Source: an uncultured Bacilli bacterium (GTDB lineage Bacteria; Bacillota_I; Bacilli_A; RF39; UBA660). Taken from it: a stretch of 64,000 bases of DNA. The position numbers and the translations under genes were made by a program. Under the pieces are notes generated by a model that was given only the letters and a program-made list of their open reading frames with translations, made no database searches and was not told the origin of the DNA. Below, in pieces: positions 14,452 through 30,925 of this stretch. Positions within the stretch are counted from its first letter, which is position 1, and each line of letters starts with the position of its first letter. The stretch is from NCBI GenBank assembly GCA_947629315.1, contig CANRDB010000001.1, positions 4,829 through 68,828 on the forward strand, written 5' to 3'.

Positions 14452-14528
14452 GTCTCAGTAGCTCAGCTGGATAGAGCATCGCCCTTCTAAGGCGAGTGTC
14501 AGGGGTTCGAATCCCTTCTGGGACACCA
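14452..14528 (+). tRNA. tRNA-Arg (anticodon TCT), CCA encoded
   Basis: Hand-folded cloverleaf: acceptor GTCTCAG/CTGGGAC, anticodon stem TCGCC/GGCGA with loop CTTCTAA, T-loop TTCGAAT. Confidence 0.85.
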
Positions 14529-14561: not shown

Positions 14562-14651
14562 ATGCCTTTTCAAAATTTTAAAGGAAAATTCCATTCAAAT
14601 TTACATTCTTTCCTATTTCATGATATAATGATAAAAGTAAAATAATAGAGT

Positions 14652-17600
14652 ATGAGGTGTCACATGAGTCAATCGGATAAATTAAAACAAATAACAGGTA
14701 GAGTAAAACGAGAAATGGACCGCACCATTCGTGAAATTAATCGTTACTATGCCAGTTATAGTCAAGAATTAGAAAACAGACAGATTCTAGATCCTAACAA
14801 CGAAGAACAAAGGGCTTTAGCAGAGCAATTCTTTCAAAGAGAGACAGAAAATCTAAAACAGGAATTACATCAATTCATCGAATCTGGCATCAATGAAGAA
14901 GATGCCTTAAAAAGTGAATTACCTCGCGCTTATGCTTTAGTCAAAACAGCGAGTAAATTTTTATGGAACAAGCCTCACTATGATGTTCAATTAATGGGTG
15001 GTATTCTTTTAAATGATGGATATGTTTCCCAAATGGCTACTGGGGAAGGAAAAACGCTAACAGCTGCCCTCCCCGCCTATTTAAATGCTCTTCTCGGTAA
15101 AGGAGTACATGTCTTAACACCAAATGCCTATCTAGCAAAAAGAGACCAAGAAGAGATGGGGGAACTCTACGGCTTACTAGGTCTATCTTGTGGTCTTGCC
15201 AATACTGAACGATTCGATTTTACACAGGCAGATGTACAGCGCCGAATGGATGAAATTATAGCGCGAGAAGTTTCCGAACTTTCTTATCAAATCGACTGTT
15301 CTTCAGCAGGAACTAAAAAAGGACGAAAAACGGATACGGAAACAAGCCAAAGAAGAATTAAAAAATGAATGTCTCGCAAGAAAAAGAAAAGTATATCAAA
15401 TGGATATTGTCTATGGAGCAACCCATGCCATTGCTTTCGATTATCTATGGGATGGTCTTGCGCAAGAGGAACAAGGGACCGTACAACGGATTGGACAACC
15501 AAACTTTGCTATTATCGATGAGGCAGATGACGTACTTTTTGACAGTGCGAGAACTCCTTATATTATTTCCGGTTCTCAAGAAGATGAGGAATTGAGAATT
15601 CGAAGTGAAGATGCCGAAAATGTGGTGAAATCTATCAAACAGGCAAATGAGGCAGTTTCCTATCTATACGATACCATTCAATTTTGGCAAAGAAAAAATG
15701 GAGAAGTTCTAGAAGGAGAAATCCCTGAAAATGAGAAACACAAACGAAAAGATTATGTCTCTTTTGAAAATGACATGAATCTAGCGCTCATTACGACATC
15801 GCAAACTCGTGAATGTGAATTAACCACCCTAGGAGAAACGATTATTTTTCAAAAGTACTATGGACAACAAATTCAAGAGATATTAAATAAAAATCAAGAT
15901 CTTATTATGTCATTGGAACAAAATGGAGCTCCCCTACTAAAATCGAATGTGGACTATTTCATTAATTTAGATGGAGAGATTTCTCTTGCTCCTCGCGCAT
16001 TTGCTTACTTAGTCGCGGGAGAATACATCTCAGAGTTATCTAATCTATTTGTTCATTTCCGTGGGAAAGAACTACTCCAAGATAGTGAATTTATTCAAAA
16101 TGCTTTGAAAGCATGGTTCACGTATCAAGAAGGACATGATTATGCCTTTGATGAGAAAACTTCATCAGTAGTACCAATCATTAACGGTCGAATTTACAAA
16201 GGTAGAAAATACGCTAAAGGATTTCAACAAGCTCTAGAAGAAAAAACCAAAGTATTATTACAAAAGCAATTGGGAGATAGAGCGCCAAAAATCAACGAAT
16301 CCAGACTAACAGAGACATTAGCGTCTATCCCTACCAATGCTTTCTTTGCTCGCTACCAGAAAGTTGGAGGAATGACGGGTACTTCTGCTGTTTTTGCTTT
16401 CAATAACCTTTATGGTCTAGATTCCTATGCGGTACCGAGAAACCGTCCTCGACAAGTTATCGATCACGGAGAGAGATTCTATACAAATAAGGATGCGAAA
16501 TATGAAGCTATTTTCCAATTGGCATTACAAGCCTATCAAACAAAACAACCACTCCTTATTTCTACCACTTCTACGGAAGAGAGTGAACTTCTACAGAAAT
16601 ATTTAATATCTCGATTAGAACAATATCAAAGAGGACTTCCAGAACGGGAAAGAAGAGCGATTAAGATTCCAGTTTTAAATGCCAGTGTTACCAAGTTGGC
16701 AGATGAAGCTAAAATTATATCTAACGCCGGTATTCCTGGGGCGATTACCATTGCAACTGAAATGGCTGGTCGTGGAACAGATATTAAATTAGGAGGAGAA
16801 GTTCCTGATAAACAAGAATTAATTCAGTCCATGCTTAAAATTAAAGTAAGGTCTCTTGTGGAAAAAAGAAAAAAAGCAGGTCTTGTCGATGAACAAAAAT
16901 ATAAAACACAACTGACTTATAAAAAAAGAATAGACCAAGAAGCAAGACAGTGGATTATTGATAACATCGGTATGGATGCCATTGCCAAAGAAATTGAAGA
17001 ACCTTATCGCCTATTAAAACAAGAAAAAGAACAACGAGAAAGTTTTATTAAAAACAACTCAGCGTTTAAAGGATTAAAAGTTGTCGTTTGTGGACATTTC
17101 CCATCTGCACGGACAGATGACCAAGTCAAAGGTCGATGTGGAAGACAAGGTGATCCAGGAGAATATATCTTCCTAAGTGATCCTGATGATTTAGCGCATG
17201 TTGGTATCAATCCTACTACCATTGAACGTCTCAAGATTATCGCTAATAGCCAACCAGATCACTGCATCGTAGAAACAGCGAACTCCAAACTATTCCACCT
17301 TCGAAAAATGATTTTATCCGCACAACGTCATAACGATAATATGAGTCATGAAAACATTCTCTCCTCTCTTCAATTTGATGCCGCTATCAGTACTTGCCGA
17401 GAGAGTGTTAGAAAAGTAACTGATCGATTCAAGCAAACAGAAAATTACATATCTTATATGAAGATAGCGATTGATAATACCTGTCAAAGTATTCTAGAAG
17501 GTTCTTCTGAAAATAAGAACTATACTTATCCTGATATAGAACGAAGTACCATCCAAAAGGCACATCTTAATCTTCCAAAAGTATGTTCTCTTTGTGAAGA

Positions 17601-18366
17601 CTTCCTTGGGGTAGAGATATCCCCTGAACTACTCGCATCCGCTAGAACAGTTCGGGATGTGAAAAATATAATCGAACAGAAAAGTACTCAGAGATTAGAA
17701 GTCTATATCGATCAACAGAAAAAGGAACAAATCAAAAAGTTAAAAGAGAAATATCAAAAACATAATGCGAGAATCTTAAACATTTCGGAAATCGTCAATT
17801 TATTCCGACAGACAGGAATTCAAGGATTAAAAGGTTATGTGCAAGAGCGTCTTAACTTCAAAAAATATGCAAAACTTTCCGATATCGAATTAGAAGCGGA
17901 AGTTACCGAAACGCTCAATGAATCTTTCAAAGAAAAATTTTATCAAACTATCAATCGTGCATGGGATAAATTTGAAGAAGATATTGAGGAATTTAAATTG
18001 CAAGTACAATGGACGAATCAATTTGAGTCTCATCCGTTGTCACCAGAAAGCATTCAAAGTTCTATCCAACGTGATTTCTTTCACTGGATGGATACATACC
18101 AAGCAAGACTCGTCCATGATACGATTCATCCAAGCATTTCTAAAGAGAAAGGTCCAAAGGAAGTGTATCCCGTAAGAATTACGACCGAGGGCATCCAAAG
18201 AGTTGCCGATGATTATGATGAAGAATTACAGGATGAAATTACCAACATTTCGGAAGAGGCATCTGTTCTTGGAGTACTTTCTAGTGATGAAATCGTCCCA
18301 TACAAATTAAAGCCATACGTCAGTATGCCAAATCGAAACGTAGAAAACAGAGGAAGAAGAAGATAA
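14652..18366 (+). pseudogene. Divergent SecA-like (SecA2-type) translocase ATPase, split by a frameshift near 15262-15320
   Basis: ORF 14652..15368 carries [41 protein letters not shown] 15400..18366 continues with DIVYGATHAIAFDYL, IIDEADDVLFDSARTPYIISG, ATEMAGRGTDIKLGG and GRCGRQGDPGE. The second frame is already open from 15262 and reads ...RKRKVYQMDIVYGA, matching SecA. The likely real start is ATG 14664. Confidence 0.75.
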
Positions 18367-18447: not shown

Positions 18448-18717
18448 ATGAATGATGAAATATATCAATATGCTCTACAAAAAATTGAGTGTGATAGTCA
18501 ATTCAAGCCAATTGGATGTTATGGTAATTCCCGTGGCAGTACTGGCCCAACTGGCCCTACCGGTCCGACTGGTCCCCAAGGACCCGCTAGCATCACCATA
18601 GGTACCACAACAACAGGCGCTCCAGGAACAAGTGCAGCTGTTACCAATTCTGGTACTAATCAAAATAGTATTTTAAATTTTGTGATTCCTGCAGGAGCAA
18701 CTGATGCTATGTCATAA
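18448..18717 (+). CDS. Collagen-like protein gene, segment 1 of 4. As it stands it is an 89-aa ORF whose last 5 codons and stop come from element IE-1
   Basis: AGGAGG SD and ATG at 18448. It encodes a 31-aa N-terminal region, then GSTGPTGPTGPTGPQGP, then the module ASITIGTTTTGAPGTSAAVTNSGTNQNSILNFVIPAGAT. The host part ends at 18700 inside GGAGCAA|CTG. Confidence 0.8.
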   Translation: MNDEIYQYALQKIECDSQFKPIGCYGNSRGSTGPTGPTGPTGPQGPASITIGTTTTGAPGTSAAVTNSGTNQNSILNFVIPAGATDAMS

Positions 18718-18726
18718 ATCACAAAA
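18688..18726. other. attL of IE-1
   Basis: cctgcaggAGCAACTGatgctatgtCATAAATCACAAAA. It shares the 8-nt core AGCAACTG with attR1. The outer arm is the inverted partner (13 of 14) of TTTTGTGGTTTATG at 23121. Confidence 0.65.
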
Positions 18727-18742
18727 AAAGAATTGATTAGAA

Positions 18743-20977
18743 TCAATCCTCAATTTCTTTAATCAACATTTGATATAACGCACGATTTCCTTCCTCTGTT
18801 AAATGAATTTTATCCACTCGTACATATTCTTTATGTTGTTGAATCTCTTCATAAAAAGGAATAATATGGAGAGACGATATTCCCAATGTTTCTAGTAATA
18901 TCTCGTCCTCTTCTGTCATCGCTACTACATATAACTCATTTTCTTGGCACAATTGGAAAACTGTTTGTATTTCTTGTTCCAATCTTGGTACCTGACTATC
19001 AAAAGCTACTACTAATCGATAAGTTAACGTATTACTATCCGCAGCTTTTTGAAGTTCTTGTTGCAAATCTTGCCAAGTAAAATCTTGCCGAACAATAAAC
19101 TGTGCTTGTTGATATTCCTGATGTAGTTCATTAAAAATATTCACTAAAACATCATTACCGTAAAAGGTAATTTTATTTTTTAATTCTTCTTCATGATGAT
19201 GAATAATCTCTTCTTTTTTCTGTTGATATCGATCTAGATAAACTTGATAAATAGATTGATAAATTAAGTTGGTGTAAGCCTTTCTTCCTTCTGGAGTTAA
19301 GTGGATACCATCCGCATAAAAATACTTTGAATGTCCTTGTGATGCAGTCTCCCAATCAATAATATGTAAATTAGAATGACTCTTACTTAACTCTTTTAAT
19401 TTACTATTTACATGGACATCTTTATCGTTAGTAACCGTAATCCAAAAGACATCTCTATCACCACACGTTTGTAAAATTTCTTCCTTACAAGAAGAAGAAC
19501 AATCTCCATTCGCACCCAAATTCAATATTACAGGATTACCTAACAGATTACTATCCTCTAATTCTTCTAAAATACCGTTCGCTACCCAAATAGAACGTGA
19601 TACCTTCGCATCAAAATATCCATTTGGAAATTGTTTATAGAGATTATCAACAGCTCCTAACATAATAGAATCCCCGACTCCAACTACGGATAACTCAGAA
19701 ACAATCTTTTGAATTTCTTGTTCCCCATTCTCTAAATCCTCTAAAACAGAGAACCAATCTTCTTGTTCCTGTTGTAATCGATCCGCATACTCTTTTTGTT
19801 TTTGTTGAATAACCTCTTCATTAGCCGCTAACTCTTCTTTTAGTCTTTTCATTTCTGCCGTATGATCCTTCGTTTGTGCATAACAATAAACACCAGGAAC
19901 ACAGATGACACACAATATGATAGCCATCGCTGCATGCATTCTCGTTCTAGCATGGGGTCGACTACTGATGCTAAAATGAAAAACGGAACCTACTACAAGC
20001 ACTCCTAAAAGAATCGATAAAATCCGTACAGAATCCGACATTGAAAAGGCTTGCAAAAAGTAAATAATCGGATACTGAACCAAGTAGATGCAATAACTTC
20101 TATCTGAAAACCAATGAACAATTCGGTTTCCTACCCCTGCTAATTTGTTTACCATCAAAGTACTATAATCAATCATCCGACAAGTAATAAGAGATACTAT
20201 CAACATTGCTACTGCCCAAGAAGGTGCAGAAGCATCGATTGTTAAAAATAACCAAACTAAGAGAACAAAATATCCTCCAAAAAGACCATAGGCAATCAGA
20301 GAATGTTTCATGTTTTTTAGAATAAGTGGATAATAATAAAACTGAATAAACCCTAAAGTCATTCCCCAAAATAAGGAAAACATTCTCGTAAACGTATGAT
20401 AGTAAACCACCATAATATCTTGCGTGCCACTCATTTGATAAAAATACCAAGCACTTCCTATCGATACTACCAATAATAGTAAACAAGGAATCATTTTATG
20501 AATATGATCTCCTATTTTACGTAATATTTGATAGAAGAATGGAAAAAGCAAATCAAATTGCAATAAAATAGAAATATACCATAAATGCATAAATGGAGAA
20601 TCTAAGTGTCTAGCAAAATAATCTAAATTCGCCCCTAATTGCCAAAAATTATTATATCCTAACAAAACAGATGTTGTCTCTGGTTTTAAATTCAACCATG
20701 TATACTGGGAACAAAAAAACACAACAAAAAGAGTTAAGAACACAGTCAATAACAAAGGAAAATATATTTTAGTAAACAGTCTCTTATAATATTCCCAAAT
20801 AGAAAAATGATTCTTATGAAAAGCTGAAACGCACGATAGATAGCCACTTAACACAAAGAAACAACAGACCGCTAAATAGCCTCCTTTTAAAACATGCAAA
20901 TGATAAAGCAAAACGGCAATGCATGATAACACTCGTAAATAATCTAGTGCATAATAATACTTCTTAGTACTTTCCAT
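18743..20977 (-). CDS. OatA-like O-acyltransferase: acyltransferase-3 membrane domain + coiled coil + SGNH hydrolase domain + extra C-terminal domain
   Basis: About 10 TM helices with the N-terminal YLRVLSCIAVLLYH motif, then VVGVGDSIMLGA (SGNH block I) and DGIHLT (block V). Confidence 0.8.
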   Translation of the reverse strand: MESTKKYYYALDYLRVLSCIAVLLYHLHVLKGGYLAVCCFFVLSGYLSCVSAFHKNHFSIWEYYKRLFTKIYFPLLLTVFLTLFVVFFCSQYTWLNLKPETTSVLLGYNNFWQLGANLDYFARHLDSPFMHLWYISILLQFDLLFPFFYQILRKIGDHIHKMIPCLLLLVVSIGSAWYFYQMSGTQDIMVVYYHTFTRMFSLFWGMTLGFIQFYYYPLILKNMKHSLIAYGLFGGYFVLLVWLFLTIDASAPSWAVAMLIVSLITCRMIDYSTLMVNKLAGVGNRIVHWFSDRSYCIYLVQYPIIYFLQAFSMSDSVRILSILLGVLVVGSVFHFSISSRPHARTRMHAAMAIILCVICVPGVYCYAQTKDHTAEMKRLKEELAANEEVIQQKQKEYADRLQQEQEDWFSVLEDLENGEQEIQKIVSELSVVGVGDSIMLGAVDNLYKQFPNGYFDAKVSRSIWVANGILEELEDSNLLGNPVILNLGANGDCSSSCKEEILQTCGDRDVFWITVTNDKDVHVNSKLKELSKSHSNLHIIDWETASQGHSKYFYADGIHLTPEGRKAYTNLIYQSIYQVYLDRYQQKKEEIIHHHEEELKNKITFYGNDVLVNIFNELHQEYQQAQFIVRQDFTWQDLQQELQKAADSNTLTYRLVVAFDSQVPRLEQEIQTVFQLCQENELYVVAMTEEDEILLETLGISSLHIIPFYEEIQQHKEYVRVDKIHLTEEGNRALYQMLIKEIED

Positions 20978-21122
20978 ATTTCAAACCTCATTCATTGTGA
21001 TTATATATCATAAAGCCTTAAAATTCAAGACACTTTACGTCAATCCTAACTAATATTTTGTGAGAAAAAAACATGATTATTTGTTTCATTTTATTTTATG
21101 CAATTAGAAAGGAGTTATACTG

Positions 21123-23120
21123 TTGAATCAAAAAAGAGTGGCATTATATCTACGATTATCCAAAGAAGATATCGACAAGCCAACCAAGTTCTCTATCAGC
21201 GAAAGTATCAAAAATCAAGAACTATTACTGCGTGAAGAAGTGAAAAAACACCCTGATTGGGTCGTAGTAGCTGTCTATTCTGATGAAGACTTTTCAGGAG
21301 CAGGAACTTATCGACCAAGCTTTGACAAAATGATTCATGCCTGTGAAAAGCACATGATTGATATCATTCTCTGTAAAAGTCAGTCCCGTTTTTCTAGAGA
21401 TATGGAATTAATTGAAAAATATATTCATAACAAATTTAAAGAATGGAATATACGATTCATTAGTATCGTAGATAATGCCGATACTGATAACGATGGCAAT
21501 AAAAAATCTAGACAGATTAATGCTCTTGTCAATGAATGGTTTCTAGAGGATTTATCCGATAATATTCGGGCAACTTTACGAACAAAATGGCAGCATGGAG
21601 AATGTACCGCTGCTTTCGCTAAATATGGATTTCTAAAAGATCCCCAACATAAAAATCACCTAATCATAGATACGGTTGCTAGTCAAACCATTCAAGAAAT
21701 TGCTCATCTCTTTTTAGAGGGAAAAGGTCCAGAAACCATCGCTCACATTTTAGAACAGAAGCATATTCCTAGTCCTTATGAATACAAACTACAAATGGGA
21801 AGTAAACTAAAAATTCCTTTGCTTTCCTTAAACCATCCAAAAATAATTACTAAAAACGGAAAATATATTTTTACCCTTTTTCCAAGTGGAGAACCAATAG
21901 ACCATGTCGTCCTATCCATCCTACCATTTCAAGATTACGATATGACACTAACTCTCATAAAACAAAGTGGCAATGTAAAGGTTTATTATTCCCAGGAGAA
22001 ATTCTCTTCTGCTATCGAAACCGTATTGCCGGTTGAACATTCTTCATTTTGGAGACAATTGCCTATCAATCTTTCTATTTCTCATATTCAACTACTGGCT
22101 ATCTATTGTCTTCCAAACAATTTAGAAAAAACTTATTTAGAATGGGAAATAAACATCCATACCCTACCGTCTCATGATTTTTCTTTAAACATCCAATCCT
22201 TTGATGCAATACACCAACCAATTGATTTTTGGCAGTATCGAATCAGAAAAAAATATCAGTGGAATAGTCGGACAATCTATCACATTTTGAAAGATGAAAC
22301 TTATCATGGTACCTTAATTCAAGGAAAAACAAAGCGAATCAGTTATAAAAATCATACTAGTATTGCTACTCCCAAAGAGCAATGGTATGTTCAAGAAAAT
22401 ATTCTCCCTAAAATTCTAGATGATCAAACTTGGATAGCTATTCAAAATAAATTACAACTACATCCACGCGCAAGCAAAAATGGAAAACACCCTATCTTTA
22501 CTGGAAAAGTTTTTTGTGGAGTATGTGGAAAACCTCTTCAAAAAAACTCGAGCAGTTCTCTTGCTTCCCCTGTTAAAAAAGAATATTTAATTTGTAAAGC
22601 AAGAAAAGAACATTGGAAGAATTGTGAAAACAAAAAATCATTTCCCGTTTTAGAATTACAAAAATTAATCATTACTCAATTTCAAAATTTATGGAATTCC
22701 TATTACGATATGACTACCTTAAAGCAGATTCATAAGGAAGAACCCCATCATCAAACTATAGACGATCTCATGAAAGAAGAACAAAATTTACAAGAAATTA
22801 TCCAGCAGAATAACCAAATTCTTTATCAATTATACAAAGATAAAAGCACTGGCCTCATGGATGATTCTTGTTTTCATACCCTACTTCTACAAAATCAACA
22901 GGAAATGGATACTTATCACCAAAGATTGCAAATGATTGCCCAAGAGTTAAAACAGATTCAAACGAAACAGGAATTTTTCATGTCTACTGTGTGTGAATTT
23001 CTCAATACTCATTCCTTTGAAGACTATTTTTCAACCATTCTACAGCATTTTATTAGCAGCATTTTCATTGGAAAGCTGAACCATCATCAAAGAACAATCC
23101 AAATTCATTGGAAAATCTAA
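21123..23120 (+). CDS. Large serine recombinase Rec1 (665 aa, TTG start)
   Basis: [12 protein letters not shown] (catalytic Ser), [10 protein letters not shown], a recombinase domain, a zinc ribbon (CGVCGKP...[11 protein letters not shown]), a coiled coil and a C-terminal IQIHWKI tail. AGGAG SD 7 nt before the TTG. Carries about 150 extra aa compared with Rec2. Confidence 0.9.
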
Positions 23121-23281
<161 letters not shown>

Positions 23282-23288
<7 letters not shown>

Positions 23289-24784
23289 ATCCACTCTATA
23301 GTAACTACTCTTTTTCCCTGTTCTATATTGCCAATTTGTATTCGTTGAATAAAATTCTTTACCGTCTTAAGGGAAAGTTCAAGTTTTCTTTTAGAAAAAG
23401 AAAATGACATTTGTTCTTTTTTCATATTGGCAAGAGTATTTGATAACTTCTCTAACTCTTTGATATAACTTTTTTTGAGATTTTGAAAAACCTCATCATC
23501 TAGTTGTTGTTGAACATAATCGTCATACACTTTTTTTAAGCCTCGTTCTTTTTGATGGTAATCTTTTTCTAATCGTTCAAATTCTTTCTTATATAATAGA
23601 TTCTGTTCTATACTATATTGCTTCTCATATTCTAAAAGCAATTGTTCGTCGACAAATTGATGATAAAACTTCAAAAATTCTTTGAACACTAAAGATTCTA
23701 TCACATCCAAACGAATAGAGGTATGATTATCACAATGTTGCCAATAACTTCTTCTATCACGACAAACTAAATACGAATACACAGAATGGCTAGAAGAATT
23801 TTTTTCAAAGGATTGTCCACATTTTTGACAATATATTTTTTTACTAAACTCATAAATTTTACCCGTTTTAGATTGAATTCTCGTCTTTTGTTGCATTCTT
23901 CTTTGTACCTCATTCCACATCGATAAAGAAATAATCGGGTCATGCTGATGAGATACAACAATCCAATCCTTTTTTTGAAGAGAAATTACCTTTTTATTTT
24001 TATAGGAAATTTTTCGATATTTTCCCTGTACTACACTACCAATATACACTTCATTTTTTAAAATATCTGCAATTGTTTTTTCACTCCATTGATTACTAGT
24101 CGATGGTCCATAATATTTAGAACCTATTTCTTTTTTATATTGACTGGGAGTTGGAATCCCTTGATGATTCAAACACTGCTTAATTTTAGAATATCCATAA
24201 CCTTTCGCATATAACGCATATATTTGTTGAACATATTTAGAAGCAATCGGGTCAATTTCTAAATGATTTTTATCTTTCTTTTGGTAACCAAAAGGCGCAA
24301 AAGAACCGGTAAATAGACCAACTTCTTTTTTATTTCGTAATGTTTTACGAATATTTATAGAAGAATCTTCCAAATACCATTCATTCATCAAAGCATTGAT
24401 TTGTCTGGTTTTTTTATTTTCTTCTACAGAGGTATCAGCATGATCAACTAAACTGATAAAACGAACGTTCCACTCTTTAAATTTATTATGAATATATTGT
24501 TCAATTACTTCTAAATCTCTCGAAAAGCGAGACTGACTCTTACATAATACAATATCAATATTTCCTTGTTCACAATCTTTTAGCATGCGGATAAAAGCTG
24601 GTCTTTCTCTATCGATACCAGAGTAATCCTCATCAATATAAATATCAAAGATATCCCATCCTTCTTCTTGAACTTTTTGAAGTAACATTCTCCTTTGATT
24701 TTGAATACTTTCACTAAAGTCTTTTTTATCAATATCTTCTTTGGATAATCGCAAATAGATTGCTACTCTATTGTTCCCTATCAT
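23282..24784 (-). CDS. Large serine recombinase Rec2 (close paralog of Rec1)
   Basis: [36 protein letters not shown] (near-identical in Rec1), zinc ribbon CQKCGQ...[11 protein letters not shown], and the tail VVTIEWIF. The ORF track extends to 24796. MIGNNR at 24784 has the better SD (GAGGA). Confidence 0.9.
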
Positions 24785-24866
24785 AAGATTCCTCATTTTG
24801 AGAAAGAATTTCTTGTTCTAATACCGCCAACAACTGACGATTAAAAGTTTCTTTCCTTTGTTCCAT
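24768..24866 (-). CDS. Possible 32-aa ORF overlapping the Rec2 start
   Basis: Own translation: [32 protein letters not shown], with a GAGGAAAAG SD upstream. Too short to be sure it is expressed. Confidence 0.2.
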   Translation of the reverse strand: MEQRKETFNRQLLAVLEQEILSQNEESYDREQ

Positions 24867-24983
24867 AGACTTTTCCTCATCATGGAATACATTGATTATT
24901 TCAATATTATATTTCATATTTTCACCATTACAAAATATGAAAAAAAGCGAAGATTTATATCTCCACTTCTTTCTCCTGCAAAA

Positions 24984-26012
24984 TCATTTTCGCTGTTGGC
25001 TAATATCTAATACCCATAAAATATTCGATGGTAGAATACTTCCACAATACGAGCATATCTTATCAAAGAGTCCCACATTGGCGCCACAATTGTGACATTT
25101 TTTCACACTATTCATCGTAAACTTCGGATAATAATTTTGATTACGAATCAAGGTTACTGTTTCTTTTCCCTGCACTTTTTTGATGCGACCATTGCGTTCA
25201 AAATACTTTCGAATAATAAAAGTAATTCGAATGGCAGGAATATTCCCCTTCTTGATAACTTTATAAGTATCATACTCTAAAATTTCAAAATCTACTAAAT
25301 CTTGATATTGAGGAAAAATTTTCTCATCATAGTAATGCACCAACAATTGGTAATTTAAATCTTGAATAATCTTTTGATTACTCATCCGAACTTTATCAAT
25401 CATAATTCTATCATTCCTTAAGTCACGATAGGTAATCACTTTTACCAAAAGATAAGGAATCAAAAGAAAAGTATACAATAGATGAAGAGTAAATAGCATA
25501 ACAGGTAGTGTCACGAACATCAACATAACGGCAATAAACCAAGGATACTCTCCTGACTGTAAAGTTCCCATAAACGATATACCTGTCAAAATCATGCAAG
25601 TGCTTCCCAAAAAGATTTTATACTTTTTCATAGAAAAAATCTGTTTAAAGGATTGTGTCAAATTTTTTTGATGAACTCCCTGTTCTAAATAAAAAGAAGC
25701 TCCACAATAAGGGCAACCATCGTAAAACTCTTTTTCAGTAGCATGATATCCACATTCAGAACAAGTAAATTCATTATCCCCTCTAGATAATGTCATTGTA
25801 TAAGTTATGTTATCATCAAATTTCTTTTCACGATAAAGACGTTTTCCACCTTGATAATAATTTTTCTCTATCTTATTAGCTTTATAAACAGAATCGTTTC
25901 GGTTTCCATTTAAAGTACGAACAAATAACTGATCTTTATGTCGAAAAATCTCCTCTACTACAAGATTCTTTTTAGCAAGTCTTTGTAAATGCATTTGTAA
26001 AGGACTTGGCAT
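24984..26012 (-). CDS. Membrane protein with two zinc ribbons (IE-2 cargo)
   Basis: CSECG..CPYCG near the N-terminus, at least 3 TM helices, and a C-terminal CHNCG..CSYCG. Confidence 0.6.
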   Translation of the reverse strand: MPSPLQMHLQRLAKKNLVVEEIFRHKDQLFVRTLNGNRNDSVYKANKIEKNYYQGGKRLYREKKFDDNITYTMTLSRGDNEFTCSECGYHATEKEFYDGCPYCGASFYLEQGVHQKNLTQSFKQIFSMKKYKIFLGSTCMILTGISFMGTLQSGEYPWFIAVMLMFVTLPVMLFTLHLLYTFLLIPYLLVKVITYRDLRNDRIMIDKVRMSNQKIIQDLNYQLLVHYYDEKIFPQYQDLVDFEILEYDTYKVIKKGNIPAIRITFIIRKYFERNGRIKKVQGKETVTLIRNQNYYPKFTMNSVKKCHNCGANVGLFDKICSYCGSILPSNILWVLDISQQRK

Positions 26013-26075
26013 ACTATCACACTCCTACTATTCTCATTATAACAAAAAAAGTCCTCATCACAACTATTTTTTTCT

Positions 26076-26115
26076 ATTTTGACAATGAACTATGGAGCAA
26101 CTGGTCCAGTAGGTC
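26076..26115. other. attR of IE-2
   Basis: ATTTTGACAAtgaactatGGAGCAACTGgtccagtaggtc. Confidence 0.7.
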
Positions 26116-26140
26116 CTACTGGAGACGTTGGCCCTACGGG
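26101..26140 (+). pseudogene. Collagen-like gene segment 3 of 4 (40 nt)
   Basis: Reads (a)ct GGT CCA GTA GGT CCT ACT GGA GAC GTT GGC CCT ACG GG = [13 protein letters not shown]. It lies between attR2 and attL3. Confidence 0.65.
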
Positions 26141-26168
26141 TCCTACTGCACTCACTTAAAAGTGGCAC
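26125..26168. other. attL of IE-3
   Basis: gttggccctacgGGTcctactgcactcacttAAAGTGGCACT. The arm is the perfect inverted partner of AGTGCCACTTT at 29419. Confidence 0.6.
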
Positions 26169-26256
26169 TTTTGCCAAAAATTAGAACGAAAATAAGCACT
26201 TTACATTTCATTTGAAATATTATATAATACAAGTAACTAGAAAGAAGGGATTATAA

Positions 26257-27651
26257 ATGAAAAAAGTAGTAGGAACAGTAATGAAAGGGATGCTTGTTAC
26301 TTCAGGAGTTGTCACTGCTGTTGGTTGTACATTAGCTATCAGTAATCATTTGTTGAAATCAGATGATCTTGTTCTATCCAATCACAATGGTAGCGAAGTA
26401 AAACAAGCAAATGTTTTAGCGGTCGCTCAAAATCAAGTAAAGGAAGCGGAAGTTCAAGAGGCAAAAGCCAACCAAGAATTGACAAAAGCAACAAATGAAA
26501 AAGCAGAGGCAGAAAAAGAAGTTCAAAAAGCGAAAGAAACTGTGAAAGAGGTTCAAAAGGAAAAAAGCAAAGCCGAAGCACAATTAAAAGAAGCCAAAAC
26601 AGAAGAAGAAAGAAAACAGGTAGAAGATCAAATTAAAGTTTTAGAAGAAAAAGTGAAAGAAGCTGAAAATAATCAAAAAGCAGCAGAATCAAAAGTACAA
26701 GAAGCAGAGACTAAGGTTCAAGAGGCTGAAGTGAAAGTTCAAGAGGCTGAAGCCAAGGTTCAAGAAGCTGAGGCTAAAGTTCAAGAAGTACAAGAGACAG
26801 AAATGAAGAAACAAGAAGTAGAAAAACAAGTTCAAGAAGTTCTTCCAGCAAATCCTTCAAAAGAAGAAACTCAAACTACTGTCAAAGAAGAAAACACTAC
26901 CAAACCAGTTGAAAATAATCAACAAGTAACGACTCAAGAAACAAAGCAACCAGAGACAAAACAAACTGAAACGAAACAACCAGAGACAAAGCAAGTTGAA
27001 ACAAAACAGACTGAAACGAAAAAAGAAGAATCTTCAACAAACAATAATTCTTCTAATAATAGTTCTTCTAGATTAACGCAAGAGGCTTTAGAGGCTGCAG
27101 CGAGAGCAGAACAAAAATGGAATGAGGAATATCAAAAATTCCTTGCTGATCAAAAAGCAGAAGCAGATGCTAAAAAGCAAGCAAGAGATGAGGAAGCTAA
27201 AAAAGCAGAAGAGGCTGCTGAAAAAGAATTGGAAGAAAGAAGACAAAGAGAATCAACAGACAGTTTAAAGAACTTTGGTTCAGCGACTACTGATACCGTA
27301 TTTGGAGATAGAACTTTTACATTTGCTCAAAAGAATGTAGATTTACCATTTAATCCAGATATCAAAGAAAATCCAAAGAAAGTGACTTGTACAGGAGACC
27401 ATTGCGGAAAGAATGAACAAGGTTACATTTGGTTTGCTAGATTTAATAACAATTTAAATCTTGATATCTTTAAAGAACCTGGTAGTGATCGTTATGTAAG
27501 TAGTGTTCTTATTGGAAAACGTGGCGATGTAGAATATTGGACGCAATATGCACCAAGTGTTGTAAACGGTCATCAATTTGTAGAGTGGAAAGTAACAGAT
27601 ACTACTGAATATGGTATGAAAATTAAAGTTTATACTGCCATTTATAAGTAA
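26257..27651 (+). CDS. Secreted/anchored repeat protein (IE-3 cargo)
   Basis: N-terminal signal/anchor (VVGTVMKGMLVTSGVVTAVGC), KVQEAE-type coiled-coil repeats, ETKQ(P/T/V) repeats, and a C-terminal globular domain containing Cys residues. Confidence 0.7.
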   Translation: MKKVVGTVMKGMLVTSGVVTAVGCTLAISNHLLKSDDLVLSNHNGSEVKQANVLAVAQNQVKEAEVQEAKANQELTKATNEKAEAEKEVQKAKETVKEVQKEKSKAEAQLKEAKTEEERKQVEDQIKVLEEKVKEAENNQKAAESKVQEAETKVQEAEVKVQEAEAKVQEAEAKVQEVQETEMKKQEVEKQVQEVLPANPSKEETQTTVKEENTTKPVENNQQVTTQETKQPETKQTETKQPETKQVETKQTETKKEESSTNNNSSNNSSSRLTQEALEAAARAEQKWNEEYQKFLADQKAEADAKKQARDEEAKKAEEAAEKELEERRQRESTDSLKNFGSATTDTVFGDRTFTFAQKNVDLPFNPDIKENPKKVTCTGDHCGKNEQGYIWFARFNNNLNLDIFKEPGSDRYVSSVLIGKRGDVEYWTQYAPSVVNGHQFVEWKVTDTTEYGMKIKVYTAIYK

Positions 27652-27653
27652 TG

Positions 27654-27684
27654 AAAGAGCGAAACAATTCGCTCTTTTCTTTTG
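27654..27684 (+). terminator. Terminator after the repeat protein
   Basis: AAAGAGCG-aaacaatt-CGCTCTTT followed by TCTTTT. Confidence 0.5.
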
Positions 27685-27734
27685 ACCTATGATTAAAACT
27701 ATCCTTTTAGAATAATATACATTGAGGAGGTTTG

Positions 27735-27824
27735 ATGATGAAAGTAATCAGTCATTTTAAAGATAATGGTGAAAATTTAACAAAAGTTATAGAAGAATTG
27801 TTAAAAAATATCATTCAAAAATAA
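27735..27824 (+). CDS. Possible 29-aa ORF immediately upstream of Rec3
   Basis: A GAGGAGG SD followed by MMKVISHFKDNGENLTKVIEELLKNIIQK. Its stop is 6 nt before the Rec3 ATG. Confidence 0.25.
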   Translation: MMKVISHFKDNGENLTKVIEELLKNIIQK

Positions 27825-27830
27825 AGGCAA

Positions 27831-30925
<3,095 letters not shown>

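Follow-up and report, generated by a model that had tools for sequence, protein, structure and literature searches.

Canonical SecA has a motor layout that consists of NBD1 with an inserted preprotein-binding domain, NBD2, and a long helical scaffold. The same layout, with all of the ATPase motifs in common and with the scaffold as predicted from alignment and structural modeling, is found in the product of a gene at 14664..18366 on the + strand of the window, the 64-kb stretch of DNA analyzed here as a whole (G+C = 34%). This gene covers ~1,233 codons and contains one change of reading frame. Sequence identity between its product and canonical SecA is, however, only ~28–40%, and the product is ~350 aa longer; NBD1, NBD2, and the C-terminal helical region all contain inserts. 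The insert in NBD1 has a counterpart at the same position in Thermotoga maritima SecA (PDB 3DIN, 3JUX, and 4YS0), whereas canonical SecAs mostly lack it. Furthermore, the window protein scores far below the NCBIfam cut-offs for SecA, Pfam detects neither a SecA_SW domain nor the SEC-C zinc motif in it, and its family evolves far faster than housekeeping genes.

The accessory SecA2 proteins, among which we count the streptococcal, mycobacterial, and Listeria proteins and Clostridioides difficile SecA2 (PDB 6SXH), would resemble the window protein in being a second, specialized SecA-type ATPase. They are also alike in genomic setting, since the gene in the window and in the syntenic contig L081 adjoins a gene for a repetitive, probably glycosylated surface protein together with glycosyl-/acyltransferase genes. 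On the other hand, the window protein resembles SecA2 no more closely than it does SecA1, and all four SecA2 models (TIGR03714, TIGR04397, TIGR04221, and NF012136) fall far under their cut-offs. Also different from SecA2 is that no SecY2 or Asp-type partners are found among the Pfam-annotated reading frames within 15 kb of the gene, and that the neighborhood of other members of the family is of a housekeeping type, with PrkC, RsgA, Rpe, and PPDK. In the window, the neighbors are SpoIIIAH, GerE, GerM, tRNA-Arg, a collagen-like gene, and an acyltransferase: the SecA-like gene lies between the germination and sporulation genes spoIIIAH/gerE/gerM and the spore-surface-type collagen-like gene, and thus adjoins a variable spore-surface locus for a collagen-like protein, an acyltransferase, and a glycosyltransferase. 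The neighboring collagen-like gene is split, which is more noteworthy than the frameshift in the SecA-like gene.

With regard to the change of frame, the described systems closest to this locus are prfB (RF2), dnaX, and IS elements, where a one-base frame change is likewise needed for the full-length product, and where an A-rich tract and a weak SD-like sequence, here AGGA, are likewise located nearby. Different from the +1 frameshift of the prfB type, the shift in the SecA-like gene is neither at a stop codon nor conserved in orthologs, and a stimulatory structure is not found. Compared with slippage in dnaX and IS elements, the A run here is too short, and the shift is in the +1 direction, so that the −1 mechanism on A-AAA-AAG is inapplicable. 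There is also a more ordinary class for comparison, that is, homopolymer-associated frameshift pseudogenes and assembly indels, with which the locus shares a single net 1-nt indel in A-rich coding sequence, its occurrence in one genome, and intact orthologs; nothing sets the present case apart from them.

When the two frames are fused, the product has a DEAD-like NBD1 with both Walker A and Walker B, a preprotein cross-linking domain inserted in NBD1, and an NBD2, as in the SecA superfamily. A database search yields ~38 homologs of 1,000–1,230 aa with 29–44% identity, whose alignments extend over as much as 96% of the fused product. These homologs carry the same Pfam set, without SecA_SW or SEC-C, and none of them is named. 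For SecA_SW, there is no match in the window protein or in its 37 closest family members, and for SEC-C (PF02810) none in the window protein. The NCBIfam SecA/SecA2 models give ~140 and 280 bits on two pieces of the protein against cut-offs of 725–1493; for TIGR00963, PRK12904, and PRK09200, the pieces reach ~136–140 and 263–278 bits against cut-offs of 800–862. These scores and the missing Pfam matches to SecA_SW and SEC-C agree with the original prediction of a divergent, ~1200-aa paralog that is not a canonical SecA. Literature searches yielded neither a described long SecA paralog nor a “SecA3”, and no publication on this family. Judged from its sequence, the product of the locus is a member of an uncharacterized family of long SecA-like motor ATPases (~1,150–1,200 aa) from uncultured spore-forming Bacillota. 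The host of the window is likewise an uncultured, spore-forming member of the Bacillota, and the best named match of its PolA is from a “Firmicutes bacterium” (67%).

One part of the original description is not supported: a C-terminal extension of roughly 400 aa had been proposed, while residues 803–959 align to the T. maritima SecA scaffold in phmmer, and a structural model of this region matches SecA chains. In the AlphaFold model, the last 438 residues are all-helical (pLDDT 78.8), and the best PDB matches of this C-terminal model are E. coli and T. maritima SecA, with a probability of 1.0 and a TM-score of only ~0.3. Because the alignment to SecA continues up to residue ~959 and the modeled structure finds SecA in the PDB, the C-terminal ~400 aa are predicted to be mostly a divergent and lengthened scaffold/wing region.

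The relatives of the locus also give a measure of its evolutionary rate. In an ENA metagenome assembly, the contig L081 is syntenic with the window, with FtsK, enolase, SpoIIIAH, GerE, GerM, the SecA-like gene, and the collagen-like gene. Identities between this contig and the window are 86% for FtsK, 92% for enolase, 78% for SpoIIIAH, 94% for GerE, 68% for GerM, 67.5% for the collagen-like gene, 50% for the acyltransferase, and 90% for PolA on the same contig. The SecA-like gene of L081 is a single ORF of 1,144 aa (P0003), and its identity to the window is 60% in the N-terminal part and 35% in the rest. Overall, the SecA-like ortholog of this sister organism is 42% identical versus 90% for PolA and 92% for enolase, and the family diverges ~five times faster than housekeeping genes. 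The window protein is 42–44% identical to every family member, as against 75% between P0001 and P0003, and its branch is a long one. Of the family columns with 90% or more conservation, it deviates at 9.5%, whereas close members deviate at 1–5%. Since the identity to relatives is 42–44% versus 90–92% for PolA and enolase, an evolutionary rate of this kind is incompatible with a housekeeping SecA, and the pattern fits an accessory gene whose loss would be tolerated. From the same rate, we infer that the SecA-like gene is dispensable and that a canonical secA is located elsewhere in the genome; there is none within the 64-kb window.

The SecA-like gene most likely starts at ATG 14664, with GAGGTG as a ribosome-binding site (both within 14656..14666, +). 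In addition to the sequence, this start is consistent with a gene call on the independent contig L086, which begins at the equivalent of 14664, and with the alignment of the ortholog P0003, which begins at residue 18 of the ORF opened at 14652. Frame 0 is open over 14652..15368, and its coding part, ORF1 (14664..15368, +), was delimited from the ORF list, Pfam, and tblastn; it encodes the N-terminal part of NBD1 and ends at the TGA of 15366–15368. The Walker A motif, MATGEGKT, is translated from 15033..15056 (+) in ORF1, and its columns are invariant in the family alignment. In frame +1, a TAG at 15259–15261 is followed by an open frame from 15262 through 18366, in which the first ATG is at 15400. 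The continuation in this frame (15337..18366, +) encodes the rest of NBD1, the preprotein-binding domain, NBD2, and the helical C-terminal region. The Walker B motif, DEAD, is encoded in this ORF2 at 15517..15528 (+), as seen in the translation and the family alignment; that is, the shift separates Walker A in ORF1 from Walker B in ORF2. Frame +2 is closed by a TAA at 15314. Frames 0 and +1 are both open over 107 nt (15262..15368, +), where an overlap of about 100 nt had been noted, and on direct reading the TGA at 15366–15368, the frame open from 15262, and the run at 15311–15333 are all found where the original prediction had placed them.

The open overlap of 107 nt is unremarkable on its own: off-frame stops occur at about 5–8% per codon, and a 35-codon stretch would be open by chance in ~6% of cases. 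It is the homology on both sides of the break that establishes the splitting of one gene. Indeed, Pfam SecA_DEAD matches ORF1 at model positions 21–155 (2.4e-42) and resumes in frame +1 at ~15376 with model positions 159–283 (1.8e-29), so that the SecA similarity first noticed in the sequence is also recovered by formal HMM search. ORF2 next carries SecA_PP_bind (4e-07, 31 bits; cut-off 23.5) and P-loop_SecA (4.9e-37, 128 bits). Likewise, a canonical clostridial SecA used in tblastn aligns to 14736–15197 in frame 0 and to 15382–15576 in frame +1, and only nine query residues are missing in the gap of 184 nt (3 × 61 + 1). The 184 nt (15198..15381, +; 61 codons + 1) correspond, by Pfam and tblastn, to a Lys/Glu-rich insert specific to the family, which falls between SecA_DEAD model positions 155 and 159 within NBD1 and harbors the frameshift. 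An intervening element or intron is rejected, as the two halves of SecA_DEAD are parted only by the family's own insert. The gene is therefore split by a single net +1-nt shift, as originally proposed, and no other pair of long open frames on one strand in the 64 kb behaves as a split gene.

To locate the shift within the insert, every fused model with a 1-nt deletion or a 2-nt insertion was scored with the family HMM. The score is flat, at 1180–1185 bits, for junctions from 15259 to 15337 and drops by 5–10 bits beyond. A stretch of 12 residues in frame +1 from 15334 matches ARKKAKFELKNE of L083 and the family consensus. From the other side, codon and hexamer usage prefer frame 0 up to at least ~15291. 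Because codon usage gives the left border and homology the right one, the interval holding the net +1-nt shift is bracketed at about 15291..15336 (+). There is one conflict with the homology signal: the hexamer/codon models peak near 15340 by ~6 bits, and codon usage alone would keep frame 0 to ~15342, owing to two rare CGG codons in frame +1. The sequence aactAAAAAAggacgAAAAAcgg, which occupies 15311–15333 and had been put forward as the slip point, lies inside the bracket and is plausible as such; the plateau of HMM scores, on the other hand, does not single out an exact base. The A6 run at 15315..15320 (+) is the most plausible single site, although not a proven one, and the extra base is most likely in this run or close by. 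When one A is removed from it, the fused product aligns unbroken with both the family and T. maritima SecA. The A5 run at 15326..15330 (+) is an alternative site with HMM scores indistinguishable from those of the A6 site. The same insert contains A7–A8 runs in orthologs, and for this reason it is regarded, on sequence comparison, as a natural hot spot of indels and mutation.

A comparison with orthologs, as had been suggested for this gene, shows that the syntenic L081 and all other relatives are unsplit. A single frame runs across the site in the ~38 family proteins and in seven sequence-distinct DNA loci (L081, L083, L084, L085, L088, L089, and L090; L082 encodes the same protein as L081). 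Furthermore, a search of JGI metagenomes with the degenerate DNA pattern for TLASIP..FF..Y....GMTGT recovers two distant members, 38–42% identical and both in frame, and nothing was found with the pattern in viral contigs. Since all other loci have a single frame, the shift is private to this genome.

This distribution bears directly on the possibility that the gene is functionally expressed despite the shift, by +1 ribosomal slippage on AAA-AAG, by slippage of RNA polymerase, or by phase-variable changes in the number of A residues. On chemical grounds, tRNA-Lys could re-pair in the +1 direction, here from AAA at 15318–20 to AAG at 15319–21, with AGGA (15308–15311) located 3 nt ahead of the A6 run. 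A sequence of four nucleotides such as AGGA is, however, expected by chance in purine-rich coding sequence, and the next codon in frame 0, GGA, is a common one (25.6 per 1000), so that neither a rare codon nor a stop is present at the candidate site. In the 121 nt around and downstream of the site, the RNA folds no better than shuffled sequences (z = +1.1, that is, less structured), and Rfam has no element at the site, the upstream tRNA-Arg being the only one found; thus a stimulatory element is missing. The even longer runs (A7–A8) of orthologs in the same insert count in favor of slippage or switching, but the orthologs with these runs are in frame, and the shift is not conserved. Efficient transcriptional slippage and phase variation need longer runs, as in dnaX, IS elements, and contingency loci, and with ~8 or more as the length at which they are expected, A6 is too short. 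Two specific versions of recoding are rejected. A prfB-like shift at the TGA does not agree with frame +1 encoding conserved residues 30 nt upstream of it; homology places the shift 30 nt or more upstream of this stop. Slippage by −1 on A-AAA-AAG has the wrong direction, +1 being needed, and frame +2 has a TAA at 15314. Because the homologs are unsplit, structure, Rfam element, and long slippery run are all missing, and ORF2 has no ribosome-binding site, conserved programmed recoding is not supported, and expression by one of the slippage or switching routes given above is judged improbable.

Among these routes, a reversible frameshift in which gain or loss of an A switches the SecA-like ATPase on and off deserves mention, as the variable spore-surface locus next to the gene is of a kind for which switching would make biological sense. 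We consider it quite improbable, more so than functional expression as a whole; with all functional-expression readings taken together, the chance is still small. If reversible switching were true, it would point to phase-variable assembly of the spore surface or phase-variable export.

Or the gene may be naturally split, with the polypeptides from ORF1 and ORF2 assembling into a working ATPase. In favor of this, each of the two pieces is a long open frame with complete motifs. The cut, however, parts Walker A from Walker B within NBD1, and no member of the family is split. Also, no Shine-Dalgarno sequence is seen upstream of the first ATG of ORF2 at 15400, in contrast to the GAGGTG of ORF1, and the conserved frame +1 residues encoded upstream of 15400 would be lost from a polypeptide starting there. 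A two-subunit enzyme of this type is accordingly the least credible of the readings, with hardly any weight given to it.

Apart from the shift, the gene is intact. There is no stop in ~1,222 codons, while 5.5% of random substitutions would make one and the off-frames have 5–9% stops, and all ATPase motifs are kept: Walker A, DEAD, GMTGT, MAGRGTDIKLGG, and GRCGRQGDPG. Because the rest of the gene and its motifs are intact, the lesion would be either very recent or artefactual; long-standing decay is rejected, since there are neither stops nor a second indel. The explanation to which we lean, with a little better than an even chance, is a genuine and very recent frameshift mutation in a fast-evolving, probably dispensable paralog. 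Under this explanation, one extra base (net +1 nt) in the A-rich, lysine-coding insert of NBD1 would break the frame, and translation from ATG 14664 would stop at TGA 15366 and give a fragment of 234 aa with Walker A and without Walker B. The remainder of 988 codons would have no ribosome-binding site, so that no functional ATPase would be made. The gene would be a pseudogene in the making, through an event that was not programmed.

The artefactual version is an error in the assembly or consensus: the true genome would have one base fewer, for example A5 in place of A6, and encode an intact protein of ~1,233 aa. One isolated lesion in 3.7 kb, beside homopolymers in an otherwise perfect gene with intact catalytic motifs and no stops, has the look of a consensus error, and the site is within a stretch of A6 and A5 runs while all orthologs are intact. 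In addition, the organism is known only from metagenome-type assemblies, and the same strain has ~2x coverage in two ENA samples, so that the source could be a MAG that is unevenly covered. Against this, short reads seldom miscount A6, and the SPAdes-style names of related assemblies in the project point to short reads; the source contig of 149 kb also suggests adequate coverage. The window as a whole provides a further control. Intact ORFs contain 104 A/T runs of six and 56 of 7–9 (49 A/T7, 6 A/T8, and one A9), 160 in total. With one split gene in 64 kb and 160 such runs in intact ORFs, the assembly does not seem to be systematically prone to homopolymer errors. An assembly error is accordingly a possible explanation, but the less likely one, and we infer that the extra base belongs to the genome and did not arise in the assembly.

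Where they overlap the window, two independent ENA assemblies of this strain, both of low coverage, match it at 99.97–100%. One of their contigs, L086, which was found through GerM, stops at 15293 and so falls 22 nt short of the A6 run, and two mismatches in its last 8 nt are probably read-tail errors. The other, L091, was found through the collagen-like ORF and spans only ~18.4–19.5 kb, and a second protein search found no independent fragment over the junction. Of the three explanations that came with the original prediction, a homopolymer sequencing error and a true recent mutation are thus both retained, at the respective strengths given above, while slippage-dependent expression lacks support, with orthologs in a single ORF, a run of only A6, a z of +1.1, and no Rfam element.

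The frameshift is either a caveat for the annotation of this genome, with the gene to be flagged as frameshifted, or it captures an accessory gene in the course of being lost. Should the family have a dedicated substrate, this strain would provide a naturally occurring null mutant. The unnamed family of long SecA-like ATPases to which the gene belongs is of more note than the change of frame.

Just 3′ of the SecA-like gene, a collagen-like (BclA-type) gene begins on the forward strand but appears to be interrupted by an intervening element of ~10.7 kb (18704–29445). Its 5′ piece (18448–18717, +) has the C-terminal end "...IPAGATDAMS*", while the 3′ piece (29421–29834, +), which carries GPT collagen repeats and matches Pfam Collagen at 2.7e-14, is an open frame without a start codon that immediately follows the termination codon of a large serine recombinase gene. 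The sequence GCAACTG is common to both junctions, at 18697 and 29439, in identical codon phase, so that excision would yield "...IPAGAT|[10 protein letters not shown]...". In L081, a metagenome contig from a syntenic sister organism, the corresponding position carries "[16 protein letters not shown]". L091, a contig of the same strain from an independent assembly, confirms the left junction.

Three large serine recombinase genes are found within 8 kb, all inside the intervening stretch: 21123–23120 (+), 23282–24796 (−), and 27831–29420 (+), the last being the one that abuts the 3′ collagen-like piece. Each encodes the Resolvase, Recombinase, and Zn_ribbon_recom domains. Such crowding suggests that the stretch consists of nested or tandem elements. 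Likewise, L081 has two recombinases past its collagen-like gene, which ends at 100 aa. The split gene and its intervening stretch resemble the skin, SPbeta, and gin elements, which are excised in sporulation (PMC5595907, PMC4191935).

On the other side of the SecA-like gene, a tRNA-Arg(TCT) gene (14452–14528, +) lies between it and gerM, and carries a terminator-like hairpin with a T run. A TATAAT box at 14624–14629, ahead of the SecA-like gene, makes it probable that the latter has its own promoter.

Near the frameshift of the SecA-like gene, L086, a contig of the same strain from another independent assembly, agrees with the window at every base for 2,931 nt and stops 22 nt short of the A6 run. 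Its last 8 nt contain two mismatches (L086 2932 and 2938, corresponding to window 15286 and 15292), which are probably read-tail errors at low coverage, or else may reflect local strain heterogeneity at the insert of the SecA-like gene. As for the downstream piece of the frameshifted gene, ORF2 (988 aa, entry P0129 of the protein collection), it was assigned to a 90% cluster represented by P0130, a 52-aa peptide unrelated to it. This placement is a database artefact, and because of it the homology search missed the window's own ORF2, which bears on any search result of "no close relative."

Between the window and L081, enolase and GerE to the left of the SecA-like gene are 92% and 94% identical, respectively, whereas the two parts of the SecA-like gene itself (window 14664–18366 vs. 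L081 10001–13435) are 60% and 35% identical, and to its right the acyltransferase and recombinase are 50% and 52% identical. In these sister organisms, the SecA-like gene and the genes on its right are thus far more diverged than those on its left. The SecA-like locus is the edge of a variable region, probably a spore-surface region.
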